From Escherichia phage DK-13: DNA of 64,000 bases. The DNA is taken from the sequence record MT611523.1, one strand, 5' to 3'. The notes beneath the pieces were generated by a model, which did not search any database, was not told the DNA's origin, and saw nothing but the letters and a program-made list of their open reading frames with translations. How positions within the stretch are numbered: the stretch's first letter is position 1; each line of letters starts with the position of its first letter. Position numbers and translations under genes: made by a program. Below, piece after piece: positions 29,800-63,252 of the stretch.

Positions 29800-31299
29800 A
29801 TGGATATTAAAATCAACTTTCTAAATTTTAGTCACGTGCATGTTGAATGTGAAGATGGAATCTTCTACGAACTCCGTGATTACTTCAGCTTCGAAGCTGA
29901 AAACTATCGCTTCAATCCAAAGTTCAAGCAGGGAGTTTGGGACGGACGTATCCGCCTCCTGGATTACAATCGTAAATTACCATACGGTTTGGTTAATCAA
30001 ATTAAAAAGTTCGCTGACCAGTTTGGCTATTCATTCTGGATTGACCCGCAAATCACCGAGAAAGAAGAAATCTCTCGCGAAGAATTCAACAAATGGGTTG
30101 AGTCAAAAGAAATCTATTCAGGCAATACCAAGATAACTCCTCATTGGTATCAATCTGACGCCGTATATGATGGTCTGGTCAACAGAAGAAAGATTCTGAA
30201 CTTACCTACGTCTGCAGGTAAAAGCCTCATCCAGGCGCTTCTGGCGCGATATTATCTCGAGAACTATGAAGGCAAGGTGCTTATCCTTGTTCCTACAACT
30301 GCGCTTGTTGACCAGATGATTAATGACTTTGTTGATTATCGGCTTTTCCCTCGTGCAGCTTGTCTGGGTATTCGTTCCGGGACTAAACGCGATTCTGATG
30401 CGATGATTTATGTATCGACTTATCAGACGGCTGTAAAACAACCTAAAGAATGGTTTGAACAGTTTGGCCAGTTTATGAATGACGAATGCCACATGGCTAC
30501 AGGTAAATCGATTTCGACGGTTATCGAAGGCCTTACGAATTGCATGTTTAAATTTGGTCTGTCAGGTTCACTCCGTGATGGCAAAGCCAACCTTATGCAA
30601 TATATGGGTCTGTTTGGTGATATCTTTAAACCAGTATCAACATCTAAATTAATGGAAGATGGCCAGGTTACTGACCTTAAAATAAATAGTATTTTCCTTC
30701 GTTACCCTGATGAATTCACCGTTAAAATGAAAGGTAAAACTTATCAGGATGAAATCAAGGTAATTACAAAAGCTACACGCAGAAATAAATGGGTAACAAA
30801 CCTTGCCCTCAAGCTTTCTAAAAAAGATGAAAACGTCTTTTTGATGTTTAAGAATATCGAGCACGGTAAATCGATGTTTGAAATGATTAAGGAAGCTGGT
30901 CATGAAAAAGTGTATTATGTTTCTGGGGAAGTCGATACCGAAACTCGTAATGCTCTGAAGGTCATGGCAGAGAATGGAAAGGGAATTATTGTTGTAGCTT
31001 CATATGGTGTATTCTCGACGGGGATTTCCGTTAAAAACCTCCATCATATTATTTTCGCTCACCCAGTCAAGTCAAAGGTAATTGTACTCCAGACAATTGG
31101 CCGCGTGCTTCGAAAACATGAATCCAAATCACAAGCAAACGTTTTTGATATCGTTGACGATATGGGTGTTAAACCTAAATCGGCAAATGCTAAAAAGAAA
31201 TATGTTCATTTGAACTTTGCCCTAAAGCATGGCCTTGAACGTATACAAAGATATGCTGATGAACGGTTTAACTATGTAATTAAACAGGTGGAAATTTGA
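29800..31299 (+). CDS. uvsW: UvsW DNA/RNA helicase
   Basis: Start MDIKINFLNFSHVHVECEDG matches recalled T4 UvsW; Walker A LPTSAGKS, DECH box. Confidence 0.9.
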   Translation: MDIKINFLNFSHVHVECEDGIFYELRDYFSFEAENYRFNPKFKQGVWDGRIRLLDYNRKLPYGLVNQIKKFADQFGYSFWIDPQITEKEEISREEFNKWVESKEIYSGNTKITPHWYQSDAVYDGLVNRRKILNLPTSAGKSLIQALLARYYLENYEGKVLILVPTTALVDQMINDFVDYRLFPRAACLGIRSGTKRDSDAMIYVSTYQTAVKQPKEWFEQFGQFMNDECHMATGKSISTVIEGLTNCMFKFGLSGSLRDGKANLMQYMGLFGDIFKPVSTSKLMEDGQVTDLKINSIFLRYPDEFTVKMKGKTYQDEIKVITKATRRNKWVTNLALKLSKKDENVFLMFKNIEHGKSMFEMIKEAGHEKVYYVSGEVDTETRNALKVMAENGKGIIVVASYGVFSTGISVKNLHHIIFAHPVKSKVIVLQTIGRVLRKHESKSQANVFDIVDDMGVKPKSANAKKKYVHLNFALKHGLERIQRYADERFNYVIKQVEI

Positions 31300-31991
31300 A
31301 TTATCAAAAAATATATGATGATTTAATTGGGAGCCGAAAGGCTTCCAAACCAATTGGATATACGGAATCTCACCATATTATTCCAGAATGTATGGGTGGA
31401 CCTGATACACAAGAAAACAGAGTCAACCTTACTCCAGAAGAACATTTCGTTGCGCATAAATTATTGGCCAAAATTCATCCTAATCATTACGGTCTTATAA
31501 AGGCCGTCATTGCTATGGGTATGAGCTCTCGAACACATCAACGACAATTTAATAAATCGTATGGATGGGAGCGTAGACAAATGTCAGTTCTTCAAACTGG
31601 TGAAGGTAATCCTTTTTATGGTAAGCACCATACTGAAGAACATAAAGAATATATGAGCCAATTATTAAAGGGTCGCAAAATAACTTGGGCCGATAAAATA
31701 TCTGCGACAAAGAAAGCGAATCCGTATAAATACTCTCAAGCACAATGTCAAGCTATATCTGAAAGAAATAAAGGTGAAGGTAATTGGATGTATGGTAAAT
31801 CACATACACCAGAAGCATCAAAGAAAATTTCAGATAAAGCAAAAGAACGTTATAAGGACCCATCCAAAAATCCTGCCGCTAAGAAAGTGGTTTTAAACGG
31901 GATTGAATATGGTTCGATGAAGCAAGCTTCTGTAGCAACGGGGCTTTCTTTATATAAAATCAGAAATTTAATTAAACAGGTGGAAATATAA
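31296..31991 (+). CDS. HNH homing endonuclease, Mob-like
   Basis: YTESHHIIPECMGG HNH core; repeated NxxYGKxHTxE modules; apparent TTG start preceded by AGGTGG. Confidence 0.85.
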   Translation: MNYQKIYDDLIGSRKASKPIGYTESHHIIPECMGGPDTQENRVNLTPEEHFVAHKLLAKIHPNHYGLIKAVIAMGMSSRTHQRQFNKSYGWERRQMSVLQTGEGNPFYGKHHTEEHKEYMSQLLKGRKITWADKISATKKANPYKYSQAQCQAISERNKGEGNWMYGKSHTPEASKKISDKAKERYKDPSKNPAAKKVVLNGIEYGSMKQASVATGLSLYKIRNLIKQVEI

Positions 31992-53689: not shown

Positions 53690-54039
53690 TTGGTGAGCTC
53701 CTGGAAGTCCTGGGCGAACTTATCAAAAGACTGATTAATCTGTTTTTCAACTAATTTAGGCTTCGCGGCCACAACCTTAGTACGTTTTGCATCTGCACGG
53801 AGTTTATCATTTTCCTTCTGCAGGTGTTCAACATATTCCTGACGTTGCTGGTCAAGGAGATTAATTTGATTAATCTGGTCTTTTACTGATTGTAGATTTT
53901 TCGCGTTATCTTCTGCGACTTTGGTGACTTCCGCCACCGCTGTCTTGAGATTATCCACTTTTGCTTTTAGATAGAAACCACTACCAGCAGTTACTACCAG
54001 GGCGAGCATAAGCCCTGCAGTGAGATTACTTATTTGCAT
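53686..54039 (-). CDS. Putative inner-membrane spanin
   Basis: N-terminal transmembrane helix followed by coiled-coil periplasmic region. Confidence 0.6.
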   Translation of the reverse strand: MQISNLTAGLMLALVVTAGSGFYLKAKVDNLKTAVAEVTKVAEDNAKNLQSVKDQINQINLLDQQRQEYVEHLQKENDKLRADAKRTKVVAAKPKLVEKQINQSFDKFAQDFQELTK

Positions 54040-54533
54040 AACTTGATGATTACCTCAACAATATCATCCTGGGATAAACCATTCAGGAGGATGTGATTTG
54101 TGCTGTCAGATGCTGAAATGCGGAACTGATTACCAACTTCATCCGCCATATCATCCTGGGTTAACACTGGATGTTTAATTCCCAGGCGGTGTTGAAGTGT
54201 CAGGGGTTCAACCACAACATAACAAACACATCCATTGATATGTACATTAGGTTGGGTCTGGTTAATGAACACTTCTGCATCATATTTAACCAAATGGTTC
54301 TTTAAGAATTCAACCATTTCAGGAACAGATTCATGCAGTGCTTCTTTCCGCTCTTCTGATTTTTTATCGCGATATTCTTTTTGTTTCGCCTTCAACTTTT
54401 TGTTAGAGGCGAGTTTTTTCCGCAGGTCAGTCATAAGACCAATTTTCTTGGTCCCTTTATAGACATAAATTCCGTCATGACGGTCACCATATTCATTGAC
54501 AATCATTTCATTTGAAATCAGTTGCATATCCAT
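54030..54533 (-). CDS. alc: Putative Alc (host transcription termination/unfoldase) protein
   Basis: 167 aa from internal ATG, same length as T4 Alc; position between spanins and rnlA. Confidence 0.55.
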   Translation of the reverse strand: MDMQLISNEMIVNEYGDRHDGIYVYKGTKKIGLMTDLRKKLASNKKLKAKQKEYRDKKSEERKEALHESVPEMVEFLKNHLVKYDAEVFINQTQPNVHINGCVCYVVVEPLTLQHRLGIKHPVLTQDDMADEVGNQFRISASDSTNHILLNGLSQDDIVEVIIKLCK

Positions 54534-54546
54534 AATATTTTCCTCA

Positions 54547-54780
54547 TTAGTAGCGGTTATAACCCCGGGGACCAAAAGAGTTGGCACCCAGGCGCTCATC
54601 TTTCTTTTTGGCTCTTGCTCTAAACCCAGAATCACCTGTTTGAGCTTTCAGTTCTTTTAACAATTTGGCCTTCAGGTCAGTAATGAAACCAATCCGGCGG
54701 TCTCCCTTATAGACATAGATTCCATCATTTCTGTCACCATATGCCTTTGTAACTCTGTCATTTGTAATTAAGTTTAACAT
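54547..54780 (-). CDS. Alc N-terminal-domain paralog (77 aa), possible duplication remnant
   Basis: First ~45 aa homologous to N-terminus of the downstream alc-like gene (YGDRNDGIYVYKGDRRIGFITDLKAKL versus YGDRHDGIYVYKGTKKIGLMTDLRKKL); GAGGA RBS. Confidence 0.45.
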   Translation of the reverse strand: MLNLITNDRVTKAYGDRNDGIYVYKGDRRIGFITDLKAKLLKELKAQTGDSGFRARAKKKDERLGANSFGPRGYNRY

Positions 54781-54850
54781 GTTTTGGTCCTCATCAGTAG
54801 TTGATGGAACCATTATGTATAGAAAGAAGGGGCTTGTACACCCCTTTTTA

Positions 54851-56420: not shown

Positions 56421-57599
56421 TTATAGATATTTACGGAAACTAGCAAGAACATTCTCATCGACGTCATTGTCAATCTGGGCTACCAGGTAAGCAGACAACT
56501 CAACTTCTTGTGGTGCAGATTGCACATTATCAGAGTTAAGATATTCACGAATCCATGGAATCGGGTGCTTAGTAGATTCTAACACGATTTCACAAGGGAG
56601 ACCGCATTGCTTCATACGAGAAACCGTCAGGTAATCGATGAACCGGTTAAGAATCTCGACGCTCAGCCCAGGGAGTCCACCATCTTTAAACAGATGCACG
56701 GCCCATTCTTTTTCCTGGCGATTAACTTCCATGAAAATGGCTGCGGCTTCTGCTTCACATTCGTGAGCGATTTTAACCCATTCGTCACCGTCAACACCAG
56801 TTTGCAGCTGACGAAGAATATATTGGGTCCCCTTAAGGTGGAGCTGCTCATCACGGGCGATGAACTTCATTATCTTCGCATTACCTTCCATGATTTCCAT
56901 GTTCTTATGGAAGTTAAAGGTGCATGCGAAAGATACATAAAAACGAATAGCTTCCAGGGCGTTAATAACATGCAGGCAGAGATAAAGAGACTTCATCAAT
57001 GCTCGTTTGGCGATAGCTTCTTGTTTGATAGCTCGTTCCAAACGTTCGTCCGCTTCGGGAGTTTCTTTGGCCAGTTCAACAAAAGCAATCTGGTTTTGCC
57101 ATTGACGAGTTTTATTCAGAACATCATCATAGTAATGACCAATGGATTCTGCGCGCTTCATGATTGCATCATCTAACAGGATTTCGTCGAATACCTTCGC
57201 CGGGTCCGTATAGAGATTTCGCATGATGTGCGTATAAGAACGAGAGTGAATTGTCTCGCTGAATGTCCAGGTCTGAATCCATGTATCAAGACTCGGGTCG
57301 GAAACTAATGCGGCTAATGCTGCAGCTGGAGCACGTCCCTGGATACTATCCAGAAGTGATTGGTATTTCAGGTTATTGGTAAAAATATTTTGTTGATGTT
57401 CAGGAAGCTTATTAAATTGGGCTCCATCCATCATCAGGTTTACTTCCTCAGGTCGCCAGAAGTACGAGAGTTGACGCTCTGTCAACTCTTCAAACTGTTT
57501 GTGTCGCTGGATATCATAACGGGCGATGCCCAATCCAGAACCGAAGAACATCGGCTCGGCTAAAACATCCACCGGAGTGGTATTAAAAACTGTACTCAT
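56421..57599 (-). CDS. nrdB: Ribonucleotide reductase small subunit
   Basis: 392 aa from ATG overlapping upstream stop (TAATG); ferritin-like di-iron R2 fold; no intron. Confidence 0.9.
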   Translation of the reverse strand: MSTVFNTTPVDVLAEPMFFGSGLGIARYDIQRHKQFEELTERQLSYFWRPEEVNLMMDGAQFNKLPEHQQNIFTNNLKYQSLLDSIQGRAPAAALAALVSDPSLDTWIQTWTFSETIHSRSYTHIMRNLYTDPAKVFDEILLDDAIMKRAESIGHYYDDVLNKTRQWQNQIAFVELAKETPEADERLERAIKQEAIAKRALMKSLYLCLHVINALEAIRFYVSFACTFNFHKNMEIMEGNAKIMKFIARDEQLHLKGTQYILRQLQTGVDGDEWVKIAHECEAEAAAIFMEVNRQEKEWAVHLFKDGGLPGLSVEILNRFIDYLTVSRMKQCGLPCEIVLESTKHPIPWIREYLNSDNVQSAPQEVELSAYLVAQIDNDVDENVLASFRKYL

Positions 57600-58324
57600 T
57601 AATTTTTCCTCTTTAAAATTCTTCCACGTTTCCAACCTGAAGGTATAATACCACCCTTTTCTATAAGCGTACAAGATGAGCCATCATTAATCCAAATTTT
57701 ACCGCGTATTCCTTTATATGCTCGGTCCTTGACTTCTGCAAAGGTTGCATCCGGTTTATATGACCATCTGAATCCATATGCATATTGGAATTTCCCTTCT
57801 GCACAATATTTTAGATTTGATGCATTACCGTTAACATGCCGAGCAGCTTCGGCAATTGACTGGAAGCTTTCAATAAATTTTCCGGCTAAATCAAATTTGA
57901 AAATTTTAATTGATGGAACCGAAGTTCTATTTGCAATTGAAACTTGTTCTTTAGATTTATCGGAATGATGCTTACCTAACATTCCCTTTGGATGTGGATT
58001 ATTTTTAAAATATTCTTTCATATGTTTGGAAGAGGACTCTGCAAATCTAAGTCTATGCCATTCATATAATCGATTATTCAATCTATTACCAAATTTATCC
58101 GTACACATTAATGTAATAGCACAAAGTAATCCATGAGTTCTATATATTTTGTACAGTAATTGATGCGCAACGAAATGTTCTCGAGCTGATAATTTAACTA
58201 AATTGGATTTGTCATCTGTGCCGCCCATGCATTTGGGAATAATATGATGGGATTCGGTATAGCCTTCTAAAGGAGAGGCTTTCCGCCTCTCAATTAGAGA
58301 ATCATATATTTTCTTATAATTCAT
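57599..58324 (-). CDS. mobE: HNH homing endonuclease, MobE-like
   Basis: YTESHHIIPKCMGG HNH core; N-terminus paralogous to the uvsW-adjacent HNH gene; sits between nrdA and nrdB as mobE does in T4. Confidence 0.85.
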   Translation of the reverse strand: MNYKKIYDSLIERRKASPLEGYTESHHIIPKCMGGTDDKSNLVKLSAREHFVAHQLLYKIYRTHGLLCAITLMCTDKFGNRLNNRLYEWHRLRFAESSSKHMKEYFKNNPHPKGMLGKHHSDKSKEQVSIANRTSVPSIKIFKFDLAGKFIESFQSIAEAARHVNGNASNLKYCAEGKFQYAYGFRWSYKPDATFAEVKDRAYKGIRGKIWINDGSSCTLIEKGGIIPSGWKRGRILKRKN

Positions 58325-60579
58325 TACAGTTTACATGCCGAGCAATCATCTGCTTTTGGAACTTCAATTTCGTAATCATCTTGACCAGAACCATCACGAG
58401 AATTATGATAATATAAATTCTTGAGACCAAAATACCAACTGTACATCAAGTCGTCAAGCATAACTGACATCGGAACTTTTCCTTTCGGATAATTCTGTGG
58501 GTCATAATATGTATTGGCTGATGCTGACTGACAAATCCATTTCAACATAATCGCGACTTGTGTCAGATAAGGTTTGTTACCTTGCTTAGCTAGCACCCAT
58601 GCGTAATCGTACAATCCTTTATTGTGCTCAATATTGGGCACGACTTGATTAAAGGAACCCTCTTTTGACTCTTTAATAGAGACTGGTCCACGCGGAGGTT
58701 CGATACCGTTTGTACTGTTAGAAACTTGGGAAGATGACTCACAAGGCATAAGCGCTGATAATGTGCTATTACGGATGCCATGTTCAACCAGGTCTTCCCG
58801 CAACTGCGCCCAGTCACAAACGTAGTTTGGAGCTGCGATTTGGTCAATCTTTTTATTGTACCAGTCGATAGGTAATTCGCCTCGAGCCCAACGAGTGTCT
58901 GAATAATATTCGCAAGGTCCTTTTTCTTTGGCGAGCTTGATTGATGCTCGGATAAGGCCATATTGTAATCTCTCGAACAGTTCATGCGTTAAATCGTTTG
59001 CATCAGCATAGGAAGCGAAATTGCTTGCCAGCCATGCAGCATAGTTAGTAACCCCAACACCCAGGTTGCGCCGTTTTTTGGCTTTCAGAGCTTCTTTAAC
59101 CGGATAACCCTGGTAGTCCAACAGGTTATCAAGAGCACGAACTTGTACTTCGGCCAACTCGTTAATCTTATCTTGGTCCTGCCAGTCAAAACTATCCAGA
59201 ACAAATGCAGACAATGTGCACAATCCGATTTCAGCGTCTTCGCTGTTCACATCAGTAGTCGGGATTGCAATTTCGCAGCAAAGGTTTGATTGACGAATCG
59301 GAGCCTTATCACGGATGAACGGAGTGTAGTCATTCACGTTATCGACGAACTGCGGATAAACCCTGGCCGTACCGGAACGTTCGGTCATGAATAATTCAAA
59401 TACATCTTTTGCTTTGATGCGCTTCTTACGAACCGTCGGGTCTTTTTCTAAGGCTTCATATAACTCGCGGAATTTATCCGGGTTATCAAAATATGAATAA
59501 TACAATTCACCGCCAGCTTCGTGCGGACTAAACAGAGTGATGTAATCATTCTTAGCCAGTCGTTCCATCATCAGGTTATTCAGCTGGACACCATAGTCCA
59601 TATGTCTGATGCGGTTTTCTTCAACGCCCTTGTTGTTCTTCAGAACGAGTAAATTTTCAACTTCCAAATGCCAAATAGGATAATAAGCAGTAGCAGCGCC
59701 GCCACGGATTCCACCTTGTGAACATGATTTAACAGCCGTTTGGAAATGTTTCCAGAACGGAATAACACCAGTATGCTTGACTTCGCCCATACCGATTTTC
59801 GAACCTTCAGCACGAATCATGCCAACGTTGATACCGATACCTGCACGCTTACTGATATATTCGATGATTGAATTAGCAGTCTTATTAATTGACTTCAGGG
59901 AGTCAGCCGCTTCGATAACCACACAGGAACTGAACTGCCTGGTAGGTGTTCTGGCGCCCGCCATGATAGGTGTGGGCAACGAAACCTGTTGCGTGGATAC
60001 TGCATCATAAAAACGGCAAACGTGTTTCAGGCGGTCCGCTGGTTCATCCTGGTGCAGTGCCATGCCAATGGCCATGATAGCGAACTGTGGAGTCTCATAG
60101 ATTTTCCCAGTGGTTTTATCTTTAACCAGGTATTTCTCTTTAAGTTGCATCGCGCCTGCATAAGTCAGGTCAAAATCGCGTTCGTGCTTAATACGAGATT
60201 CCAGGTAAGTAATCTCTTCAGCTGAGTAGCTTGACAACAGCTCTGGGTCATATTTACCTTCATTAACACAATAAGAAATCTGGTCAATAAAAGAACGTGG
60301 CTCAAATTGTCCATAAACATCTTTACGCAGAGCAAACATTGTAGCTTTGGCTGCAACATATTGGTAATCTGGTTCTTCAACCGAAATAAGCCCAGCGGAT
60401 ACTTTGATGATAACCGTCTGAATATCGCGAGTAGTCATGCCATCGCGCAGATGCGGTTTGATTGTTTCGTATAATTCATACGGGTCGATATTAGTTCCTT
60501 CACATGACCAGGAAAGAACTTTAATAATTTTTTGGCCATCAAAATCTTGAGATACACCACTACTTTTTTGTACTTGCAT
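58324..60579 (-). CDS. nrdA: Ribonucleotide reductase large subunit
   Basis: 751 aa versus 754 in T4; ATP-cone and catalytic-site cysteines (NLCCEI), C-terminal redox cysteines. Confidence 0.95.
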   Translation of the reverse strand: MQVQKSSGVSQDFDGQKIIKVLSWSCEGTNIDPYELYETIKPHLRDGMTTRDIQTVIIKVSAGLISVEEPDYQYVAAKATMFALRKDVYGQFEPRSFIDQISYCVNEGKYDPELLSSYSAEEITYLESRIKHERDFDLTYAGAMQLKEKYLVKDKTTGKIYETPQFAIMAIGMALHQDEPADRLKHVCRFYDAVSTQQVSLPTPIMAGARTPTRQFSSCVVIEAADSLKSINKTANSIIEYISKRAGIGINVGMIRAEGSKIGMGEVKHTGVIPFWKHFQTAVKSCSQGGIRGGAATAYYPIWHLEVENLLVLKNNKGVEENRIRHMDYGVQLNNLMMERLAKNDYITLFSPHEAGGELYYSYFDNPDKFRELYEALEKDPTVRKKRIKAKDVFELFMTERSGTARVYPQFVDNVNDYTPFIRDKAPIRQSNLCCEIAIPTTDVNSEDAEIGLCTLSAFVLDSFDWQDQDKINELAEVQVRALDNLLDYQGYPVKEALKAKKRRNLGVGVTNYAAWLASNFASYADANDLTHELFERLQYGLIRASIKLAKEKGPCEYYSDTRWARGELPIDWYNKKIDQIAAPNYVCDWAQLREDLVEHGIRNSTLSALMPCESSSQVSNSTNGIEPPRGPVSIKESKEGSFNQVVPNIEHNKGLYDYAWVLAKQGNKPYLTQVAIMLKWICQSASANTYYDPQNYPKGKVPMSVMLDDLMYSWYFGLKNLYYHNSRDGSGQDDYEIEVPKADDCSACKL

Positions 60580-60612: not shown

Positions 60613-60858
60613 TTAAATTGTCTCTGGTAGTTCCGAAGTCATTTCATCATTATATTCTTCTTCTGACTGGACAGTGATGTCAAAATATGACTGGACGTCA
60701 CCGGCTGAATCATGACAGTAGACACGTTCATGTCGTTTGGCCAGAAATTTGATTCCGTCAATAGTGATATAAGAATTTGGTGCAGGTAAATCCTGTTCGG
60801 TAAATTGTGGCATTTCAAAAATGACTTCGCCTGACTGGCGTTTAAATCGTAAATTCAT
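60613..60858 (-). CDS. Hypothetical protein
   Basis: 81 aa; synteny. Confidence 0.5.
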   Translation of the reverse strand: MNLRFKRQSGEVIFEMPQFTEQDLPAPNSYITIDGIKFLAKRHERVYCHDSAGDVQSYFDITVQSEEEYNDEMTSELPETI

Positions 60859-60917
60859 AATTTCCTCTCATTAAATTTTAAATAATTATATCACGGTGCC
60901 CTGAAGCGGAATCGTAT

Positions 60918-61217
60918 TTATGTACCCAAATCCTCGAGCGAAAAGGTGTCTTTGAAAAGTTTGTTAACGACCAGAGCGATAACATCGCCATGACATGCTT
61001 TCGGTTTACATGTACAGGCTAATCGCATTCCGCGAAGGGTTTCAAGGTGTTCTCTTTTGATTTCACCCGATTTAATCTTTGATATGAAATATTCTTTAAA
61101 GTTCTTTATGTTTTCTTCTCGGGTACCATCTTTATATGGATTTCCCCACATGGTACCCCGTTGAATATTCACATCAAAGTCGGATTGATATTTGTTAACA
61201 ACCCGACAGGCTTTCAT
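60918..61217 (-). CDS. Hypothetical protein, DUF4326-like
   Basis: RGTMWGNPY...LACTCKPKACHGDV pattern. Confidence 0.45.
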   Translation of the reverse strand: MKACRVVNKYQSDFDVNIQRGTMWGNPYKDGTREENIKNFKEYFISKIKSGEIKREHLETLRGMRLACTCKPKACHGDVIALVVNKLFKDTFSLEDLGT

Positions 61218-61278
61218 AGTAGGAAGTTAAGCCCGACCATTATGGCCAGAAATAAAAGGCCAGCAATTTGAATTTTCA

Positions 61279-61475
61279 TTAGACCTCAACAATAAACCAG
61301 ATAGACCGATTGAAATCATCATATTCATACGATTTAATCACACGCATAACATAAAGTTCTTTGTTCTGGACAAAAATCGTTGTTTTCTCTTTAGGCAGTT
61401 CATCGAGACTTATATTCATTTTTTCAAACAGCACCTCATTGGTGCCGTATCTATTGTTTACTATACGAATATTCA

Positions 61476-61476
<1 letters not shown>
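61279..61476 (-). CDS. Hypothetical protein
   Basis: 65 aa ORF. Confidence 0.4.

Positions 61477-63252
<1,776 letters not shown>

Follow-up and report, generated by a model that had tools for sequence, protein, structure and literature searches.

A probable mobE-type HNH homing endonuclease gene with linked flanking tracts at the nrdA-nrdB junction of a Gaprivervirus-like phage

Introduction

The nrdA and nrdB genes of Escherichia phage DK-13 (MT611523.1), a Gaprivervirus-like phage, are separated by an open reading frame of 241 codons, which raises the question of what this gene is and whether it is an intact and mobile element. We analysed a stretch of 64,000 nucleotides of this genome, referred to here as the window. 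An earlier note on this DNA had described a MobE-like HNH endonuclease gene embedded between nrdA and nrdB, and had suggested that this gene and a paralogue next to uvsW could mediate an inversion.

Results and Discussion

Layout of the locus

The genes and junctions of the locus are the following:

58324-60579, minus strand: nrdA, 751 aa
57599-58324, minus strand: probable mobE-type free-standing HNH homing endonuclease gene, 241 aa plus stop codon (assigned from the ORF, phrog_655 and identity to RB3 MobE)
56421-57599, minus strand: nrdB, 392 aa, true start MSTVFNT...
58322-58326, minus strand: overlap of the nrdA stop and the endonuclease start, TAATG (TAATGA in context)
57597-57601, minus strand: overlap of the endonuclease stop and the nrdB start, TAATG

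The plus strand reads CATTA, that is TAATG in the sense direction, at both 58322-58326 and 57597-57601, so that each stop codon has one base in common with the following ATG. The ORFs and the sequence thus confirm the position of the gene and the two TAATG junctions given in the earlier note. The Shine-Dalgarno sequence of nrdB (GAGG) lies within the final endonuclease codons. The nrdA/endonuclease TAATG junction was also found in T4, RB3, RZ, P479 and two metagenomic contigs (L070 and L071), and the UAAUGA overlap between nrdA and mobE of T4 has already been published (PMC2988022). Single-base stop/start overlaps are routine in the window rather than unusual, since a crude ORF scan of its whole length returned 23 of them, together with 14 four-base overlaps. 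The placement of the endonuclease within the nrdA-nrdB transcription unit, also proposed earlier, is upheld by stop/start overlaps that agree with the published work on T4 mobE (PMC2790892, PMC2988022).

The encoded protein

The 241-aa ORF matched phrog_655, annotated as homing endonuclease, at 2e-59, and was 66% identical in amino acids, from end to end, to the annotated mobE of RB3, two results that bear out its description as MobE-like. Identity to the endonuclease of vB_EcoM_RZ, located at the same site, was 62%, and T4-type mobE relatives (LZ7, slur13) shared about 52-55% with the first ~100 aa. The best amino acid matches were the frameshifted copy of STML-198 (71%), an intact annotated gene of the phage collection (66%) and a sequence of IMG/VR (66%). 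Two regions were recognized in the protein:

58163-58261, minus strand: HNH catalytic motif region, residues 22-54, YTESHHIIPKCMGGTDDKSNLVKLSAREHFVAH
57800-57907, minus strand: NUMOD1 DNA-binding module, residues 140-175 (Pfam 29.3 bits, cut-off 22.8)

The motif HH..P...GG.D..N.V.L...H..AH is present in the endonuclease, and the Pfam HNH model scored 19.2 bits (E 0.0014), just under its curated cut-off of 21.4. In a sequence search of solved structures, the HNH region aligned weakly (E 0.02) with the HNH of the group II intron maturase 6me0, and nothing else was detectable. Residues H26, H27, N41, H50 and H54 are invariant in both HNH paralogues of the window. The structure model of the endonuclease (pLDDT 44, pTM 0.35, from a 7-row alignment) was too poor to assign a fold.

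Occupancy of the site and linked tracts

The flanks in the window are 96-97% identical to Gaprivervirus genomes, among which the nrdA-nrdB site is empty in about 21, occupied by a second allele in three (RZ, TH15 and P8; 62% identical to the window allele) and by a T4-type allele in one (P479). In UPEC01 the site proved to be empty, with a 38-bp spacer separating nrdA from nrdB; for ~20 further genomes the same was deduced from match spans. The insert is therefore variable in the lineage, and the invariance that would have spoken against the earlier description is excluded. The window allele itself is present almost without change (98.6-99.7% nucleotide identity) and together with its flanking tracts in three distinct genomic backgrounds, two of them being L070 and L071.

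These flanking tracts set the carriers of the window allele apart from the relatives within the genus:

58324-58520, minus strand: divergent, putatively co-converted nrdA 3' tract, marked by a drop of identity against relatives
57454-57499, minus strand: allele-linked nrdB variant tract, nt 101-146, residues KQFEELTERQLSYFW, with codon 42 = CGT at 57474-57476

In the last ~150-250 nt of nrdA, identity to RZ, UPEC01 and P479 drops from ~99% to 74-88%, whereas identity to L070 and L071 is 98-100%. Likewise, nt 101-150 of nrdB are 68-72% identical to RZ and UPEC01, against 96-100% in the remainder of the gene, while the residues of the tract (KQFEELTERQLSYFWRPEE) are identical in L070 and L071, which both carry the window allele; at the nucleotide level, L071 is identical to the window and L070 has three silent differences. 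Taken together, the nrdA and nrdB tracts are 96-100% identical to L070 and L071 and 68-88% identical to the relatives of the genus. The 14 substitutions that carriers of the window allele show in nt 101-146 of nrdB result in V35Q, K42R and F46Y, codon 42 being AAG in the empty-site genomes and CGT in the window. This codon is the mapped nick site of MobE, which is AAG in phages lacking mobE and encodes Lys or Arg in carriers (PMC2790892). The linked tracts, together with the altered codon 42, are the signature expected of homing with co-conversion and self-immunity. When the endonuclease gene was compared on its own with the phage collection, megablast returned nothing and the best blastn hit reached only ~70% nucleotide identity; a donor of the divergent tracts was not found in the collections searched.

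Considering the homology, the architecture, the presence/absence polymorphism, the flanking tracts linked to the allele and a conserved hairpin described below, we regard the ORF as a free-standing HNH homing endonuclease gene of the mobE lineage, at home at the nrdA-nrdB junction of T4-like phages, with a probability of about 85%. From the experiments with T4 we infer the nuclease activity, the exact target and the translational coupling of the window allele, and it is only by analogy with T4 that its target would be the codon-42 region of nrdB. According to this model, a promoterless endonuclease gene would be transcribed from the nrdA promoters and translated only sparsely, by ribosomes re-initiating at the UAAUG in which the nrdA stop and the endonuclease ATG overlap. 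A hairpin located 33 nt inside the gene would lower expression further, as in T4 mobE. The resulting protein would combine an N-terminal HNH nuclease with the NUMOD1 DNA-binding module and, upon co-infection with a relative lacking the allele, would nick or cut the genome of that relative within the 5' portion of nrdB, near codon 42 and beside the conserved FFWRPEE block. Repair off the carrier genome would then copy the endonuclease gene along with the adjoining nrdA 3' and nrdB 5' sequence, the carrier being immune because of the substitution cluster at the target site in its own nrdB. Since the final endonuclease codons would provide the ribosome-binding site of nrdB and the second TAATG, the expression of nrdB would be maintained.

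In RZ-type carriers the nrdB tract is the same as in the empty-site genomes; codon-42 protection is therefore not universal among the alleles of this locus. It is conceivable, though rather doubtful, that mobE alleles at the nrdA-nrdB locus differ in target or immunity and that, given the private nrdB tract of the window carriers and its lack in RZ-type carriers, the window-type enzyme could cut RZ-type as well as empty genomes and replace the resident endonuclease. If so, rival endonuclease alleles would compete for a single site.

An alternative to homing is that the gene is a fixed, domesticated and immobile passenger, kept since its 3' end supplies the ribosome-binding site of nrdB and the coupling to it, so that its loss would harm nrdB expression. 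The Shine-Dalgarno sequence and the start overlap of nrdB inside the ORF are in line with this idea, as are the argument of Wilson and Edgell that regulatory signals within mobE select against its loss (PMC2790892) and the persistence of a frameshifted homologue in STML-198. Nevertheless, the ORF is full length with conserved HNH residues, it is found nearly identical with its tracts across the three backgrounds, and in most close relatives a simple 38-bp spacer takes its place, which indicates that the gene is dispensable for nrdB expression. We thus consider a domesticated passenger improbable.

Expression signals

As in T4, a hairpin was found near the 5' end of the gene (RNAfold):

58273-58291, minus strand: 5' internal hairpin, GAGAGGC-GGAAA-GCCTCTC, gene nt 34-52, 7-bp stem, followed by CUUUA

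Hairpins with differing stem sequences occupy the equivalent codons in T4/RB3, in RZ/P479 and in the uvsW-side paralogue. A weak intrinsic terminator has been mapped near the 5' end of T4 mobE (PMC2790892), and the hairpin of the window is its predicted counterpart. A strict consensus terminator scan of 57300-58700 returned no terminators and left the hairpin unflagged because its T-run is short. Over the same interval, a sigma-70 promoter scan gave promoter-like sites at chance level. Inside the ORF, a search limited to patterns turned up neither the MotA-box core TGCTT nor the late-promoter TATAAATA; the T4 site was recovered with the same pattern. T4 mobE is promoterless and co-transcribed with nrdA, and its UAAUGA overlap suggests translational coupling (PMC2790892, PMC2988022); the middle promoter of nrdB has been placed between mobE and nrdB (PMC2988022) or "in the 3' region of mobE" (PMC2790892).

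A 5' hairpin common to the whole family was also considered and rejected: across IMG/VR relatives with 41 distinct 5' ends, nt 25-72 folded no more stably than other intervals of the same genes (median folding energy -4.3 versus -4.4 kcal/mol; one-sided Mann-Whitney p = 0.57). Of the five distant relatives that are likewise located between nrdA and nrdB, four had a strong hairpin, and for the most part the hairpin is restricted to gene copies at this site.

Comparison with known mobE genes

The MobE of RB3 (243 aa), a Tequatrovirus, resembles the protein of the window in site, length and domain order, and its gene has single-base overlaps with both nrdA and nrdB and a hairpin in the corresponding codons of its 5' end. 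The two phages share the sequence from GAATTTTAAAGAGGAAAAATTAATG, the nrdB junction and the C-terminal residues GWKRGRILKRKN. Their genes are, however, only ~70% identical at the nucleotide level; the phages belong to different genera, and nrdB of the window has neither an intron nor I-TevIII. In the N-terminal half, the frameshifted copy of the Salmonella phage STML-198 is closer to the window (~80% aa) than RB3 is. The window allele is thus a mosaic.

The experimentally studied member of the family is T4 MobE (141 aa; Wilson and Edgell, 2009, PMC2790892), for which a nicking activity has been proposed (PMC2790892). Its gene shares with that of the window the TAATGA junction with nrdA, the N-terminal HNH region and the 5' internal hairpin; codon 42 of nrdB encodes Arg in both T4 and the window carrier, and both alleles are polymorphic among relatives. 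The C-terminal half of T4 MobE differs from the protein of the window, and downstream of T4 mobE come nrdB.1 and a middle promoter in the intergenic region, whereas the gene of the window overlaps nrdB directly. T4 mobE and nrdB.1 correspond to the two halves of an intact 213-aa ORF in P479. Within the same genus as the window, the vB_EcoM_RZ endonuclease (242 aa) has the same site, architecture and domain order, and the last ~40 nt of its nrdA differ from those of the window at one position, but its stop codon is TGA, which gives a four-base ATGA overlap with nrdB instead of TAATG. I-HmuI of SPO1, an HNH nicking endonuclease to which MobE has been likened as a structural model, is alike by domain content only, having an HNH and a separate module of the helix-turn-helix type, and it is intron-encoded, unlike the free-standing gene of the window.

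The ORF is an ordinary, previously unnamed mobE variant, which extends the mobE family by one distinct, intact allele and has little importance beyond annotation. It is a clean natural case in which co-converted flanks and an altered target site have travelled together with an endonuclease gene. Such elements mark the limits of genetic exchange among phages that infect the same cell, and the pairing of allele and target could therefore serve studies of phage competition.

The uvsW-side paralogue and the proposed inversion

The second HNH gene of the window and its region of similarity are located as follows:

31296-31991, plus strand: paralogous HNH endonuclease gene, 231 aa, apparent TTG start, between uvsW and uvsW.1
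31297-31487, plus strand: segment similar to 58133-58323, inverted, 72% across 181 nt (BLAST)

The N-terminal 75 aa had been described as paralogous to this gene, about 26 kb away in opposite orientation; indeed, 46 of these 75 residues are identical (45% across 129-131 aa), and the homologous parts, which point in opposite directions, are 26.6-26.9 kb apart. The C-terminal parts are unrelated (20/99 identical). Alignment of the two genes at the nucleotide level gave a similarity that is significant (E 2e-18 to 2e-20), as the earlier note supposed, but weak, at 72% with gaps over those 181 nt, and composed of three inverted arms of ~50 nt with 78-80% complementarity. Exact runs measured 19, 12 and 11 nt. 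Efficient homologous recombination in T4 requires roughly at least 50 nt of near-perfect homology.

The idea that the two genes act as dispersed inverted repeats, inverting the ~26.7-kb segment between them, draws on the similarity and mutually inverted arrangement of their 5' ~180 nt, yet it appears very improbable. Besides the low gapped identity and the longest exact run of only 19 nt, no rearrangement was seen in ~25 related genomes, all being collinear across both sites with concordant strands, nor in L070 and L071, which keep the order nrdA-endonuclease-nrdB. Moreover, an inversion would split the nrdA-mobE-nrdB and uvsW-uvsW.1 units and yield chimeric endonuclease genes. The uvsW-side paralogue is present at 96-98% identity in UPEC01, SP18, pEC-M719-6WT.2 and TH40 and absent from RZ and ~20 other relatives. 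No other genome of the phage collection has both HNH alleles, so that the number of truly informative genomes for an inversion is one.

Integrity of the reading frame

A further reading, in which the gene is an endonuclease pseudogene undergoing decay and still open by chance, is hardly credible: decay is common at this locus, as in the split T4 genes and the frameshifted STML-198 copy, and the sole named database relative, QMV33863.1 of DK-13, is annotated as a 140-aa C-terminal piece, but an uninterrupted frame of 241 aa was found in the window as well as in six variants, with all catalytic-motif residues present, and QMV33863.1 is identical to residues 102-241 of the ORF, which makes a mis-called start likelier than a truncation. 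The 140-aa annotation thus probably lacks the nuclease domain because its start was called wrongly. The protein cluster has seven near-identical members, six of them full length (intact 241-aa variants). The codon differences of the window copy are six synonymous and three non-synonymous against L070, and one of each against L071.

Results and Discussion

As the earlier note had claimed, a mobE-type HNH endonuclease gene lies between nrdA and nrdB, with single-base overlaps on both sides: TAATG is found in the sense orientation at the nrdA/ORF and ORF/nrdB junctions, the last A of each stop codon being the first base of the next ATG.

Features of the nrd and uvsW loci
58324-60579, minus strand: nrdA, 751 aa, with the ATP-cone and both RNR large-subunit domains
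57599-58324, minus strand: endonuclease ORF, 241 aa
56421-57599, minus strand: nrdB, 392 aa, with the N-terminus MSTVFNT, the same as in T4
31296-31991, plus strand: paralogous HNH gene, between uvsW and uvsW.1

The reading of a MobE-like gene embedded in this operon was correct, and the literature already describes such an arrangement in T4 and RB3. The neighbourhood is the T4 nucleotide-metabolism cluster, with denA (GIY-YIG, 138 aa), rnlA and alc downstream of nrdB, and three small ORFs, td and frd upstream of nrdA; Gaprivervirus phages, among them vB_EcoM_RZ (RZ), UPEC01 and SP18, match the flanks at 96-97% identity. A crude ORF scan of the window counted 23 single-base and 14 four-base overlaps; since gene packing here normally uses single-base overlaps, the junction form alone is no signal.

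The protein falls in phrog_655, 'homing endonuclease' (2e-59, PHROGs), and in Pfam its NUMOD1 match at residues 140-175 exceeds the cut-off (29.3 bits), whereas the HNH match at residues 22-43 is slightly below it (19.2 bits vs 21.4); the HNH of a group II intron maturase aligns with the motif YTESHHIIPKCMGGTDDKSNLVKLSAREHFVAH. An AlphaFold model built from few sequences gave no usable fold. The best full-length relatives of the ORF are the annotated mobE genes of RB3-like Tequatrovirus phages (66% amino acid and ~70% nucleotide identity). The first ~120 residues share ~80% identity with a frameshifted copy from Salmonella phage STML-198, and RB3 is the closest relative of the last ~80, so that on sequence comparison the protein is a mosaic. 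No phage-collection record contains the ORF at megablast level, and because the best matches in two phage collections reach only 71% (the frameshifted STML-198 copy) and 66% (an intact gene) at the amino acid level, the window gene represents a new allele of an element already known. The STML-198 copy, the closest N-terminal relative, also lies between nrdA and nrdB (L006, 2499-3230), where the annotation covers only a 345-bp fragment as a hypothetical protein. Only one named sequence, QMV33863.1, falls in the window protein's 90% cluster: a 140-aa 'homing endonuclease' of Escherichia phage DK-13, identical to residues 102-241 (57599-58021, minus). Its start was probably mis-called, so that the nuclease domain was dropped.

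RB3 mobE (243 aa) likewise overlaps nrdA and nrdB by one base each, and its last 25 nt (GAATTTTAAAGAGGAAAAATTAATG) and C-terminal residues are identical to those of the window gene. The TAATGA junction and the N-terminal HNH region recur in T4 mobE (141 aa), whose C-terminal half is unlike that of the window protein; T4-type mobE relatives (LZ7, slur13) match at ~52-55% across the first ~100 aa. At this site in P479, an intact 213-aa ORF (L003, 3598-4239) aligns by its N- and C-terminal halves with T4 mobE (141 aa) and nrdB.1 (83 aa), respectively (L004, 4717-5417). Judged by these alignments, a longer endonuclease, whose C-terminal part bears a CPHC zinc-finger-like motif, appears to be split in two in T4.

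A survey of relatives for nrdA-nrdB intervals without the insert revealed that occupancy varies within the genus, so the insert is not invariant. The spacer is 38 bp and endonuclease-free in UPEC01, and in ~20 other related genomes the match spans are too short for the 726-bp insert; in RZ, TH15 and P8 the site is filled by a 242-aa allele only 62% identical to that of the window, and in P479 by a T4-type allele. While most of nrdA and nrdB is ~99% identical to RZ, UPEC01 and P479, two stretches diverge: the final 150-250 nt of nrdA (74-88% identity) and nrdB nt 101-150 (68-72%). Logan and ENA assemblies contain the exact window protein, one of a seven-member cluster of near-identical sequences. 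Two long metagenomic contigs (L070 and L071) carry the same allele at 98.6-99.7% nucleotide identity, and both of its junctions are TAATG there too. Elsewhere their background is mosaic relative to the window (73-100%), whereas the endonuclease gene and both divergent tracts (the nrdA 3' end and nrdB nt 101-146) are 96-100% identical; therefore, gene and flanks travel as a unit. Such joint movement is what would be expected of homing with co-conversion, and co-conversion of nrdA and nrdB flanks with T4 mobE has been reported, as have MobE-dependent nicks at nrdB nt 122-126 (Wilson and Edgell, PMC2790892). No donor of the divergent tracts turned up in the collections searched. Codon 42 of nrdB, which is AAG in every mobE-less phage and Lys or Arg in carriers (PMC2790892), is CGT (Arg) in the window vs AAG in UPEC01 and RZ, and the linked tract also carries V35Q and F46Y, beside the FFWRPEE block. 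This private tract, the putative target, is linked to the window allele, whereas the RZ-type allele is not so linked; targeting may conceivably be allele-specific, and one endonuclease might replace another. The pairing of tract and allele is the one mildly new thread.

T4 mobE lacks a promoter and shares its transcript with nrdA, and a hairpin 27 nt past its AUG acts as a weak terminator (PMC2790892); the UAAUGA overlap was already described, and translational coupling was proposed to limit MobE synthesis (PMC2988022). The window gene has a 7-bp hairpin at nt 34-52 (GAGAGGC-GGAAA-GCCTCTC, then CUUUA), and hairpins with other stem sequences occur at the same codons in T4/RB3 (CCCGAGC...), RZ/P479 (CCCGGG...) and the uvsW-side paralogue (GGGAGCC/GGCTTCC). 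Five IMG/VR relatives (L010, L011, L012, L017, L020) also lie between nrdA and nrdB, with NrdA only 35-66% identical to that of the window, and four of them have a strong hairpin at this position; a family-wide role was rejected, since the wider family lacks it. Unlike in T4, no MotA-box or late-promoter match occurs inside the window gene, and nrdB probably depends on read-through and on a ribosome-binding site within the last codons of the endonuclease. Terminator and promoter scans of the locus gave nothing informative.

The N-terminal paralogy of the two HNH genes was borne out (46 of 75 residues identical, 45% over ~130 aa), with unrelated C-terminal parts. The further proposal, that the pair could mediate inversion of the intervening segment, is not supported. 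Nucleotide similarity does exist (72% over 181 nt, gapped, or, in another description, three ~50-nt arms with 78-80% complementarity), but exact runs are only 19, 12 and 11 nt. For homologous recombination to be efficient in T4, nearly perfect homology over some 50 nt is required, and the pair is therefore a very poor substrate. In addition, an inversion would break up the nrdA-mobE-nrdB and uvsW-uvsW.1 units, and no rearrangement was seen: all related genomes gave a single collinear match per site with concordant strands, and L070 and L071 keep the order nrdA-endonuclease-nrdB. The direct sample is small, as no other phage-collection genome has both alleles; the sites vary independently, UPEC01 having only the uvsW-side gene and RZ only an nrd-side gene.

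In the uvsW-side region (31277-31991, plus), an exact 19-nt repeat in direct orientation, TAATTAAACAGGTGGAAAT, brackets the HNH gene (31277-31295 and 31969-31987); none would be expected by chance. The insert duplicates the uvsW 3' end; the endonuclease therefore ends ...IKQVEI*, like UvsW, and the TAATG junction with uvsW.1 is restored. RZ, which is empty at this site, reads ...AAACAGGTGGAAATATAATG, and at the same position P479 carries another HNH gene, of 261 aa, likewise ending FIKQVEI*. The start appears to be a TTG (31296-31298, plus) overlapping the uvsW TGA (ATTTGA); P479 has ATG at the corresponding position, and the UPEC01 annotation begins at an internal ATG, which would delete the HNH motif.

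In the nrd region, neither nrdB nor td (61476-62336, minus) contains a group I intron, I-TevIII or I-TevI, and nothing in the window genome corresponds to the trans-homing of a defunct intron endonuclease reported for T4 mobE. The three small ORFs between td and nrdA (81, 99 and 65 aa; 60613-61476, minus) are present in RZ, UPEC01 and P479 and missing from L070 and L071, a further indel polymorphism. Two overlapping ORFs at 54030-54813 (minus) both have Alc-family matches in related contigs, and 'inhibitor of host transcription' is annotated twice in UPEC01 and P479; alc appears to be duplicated or split in this lineage.
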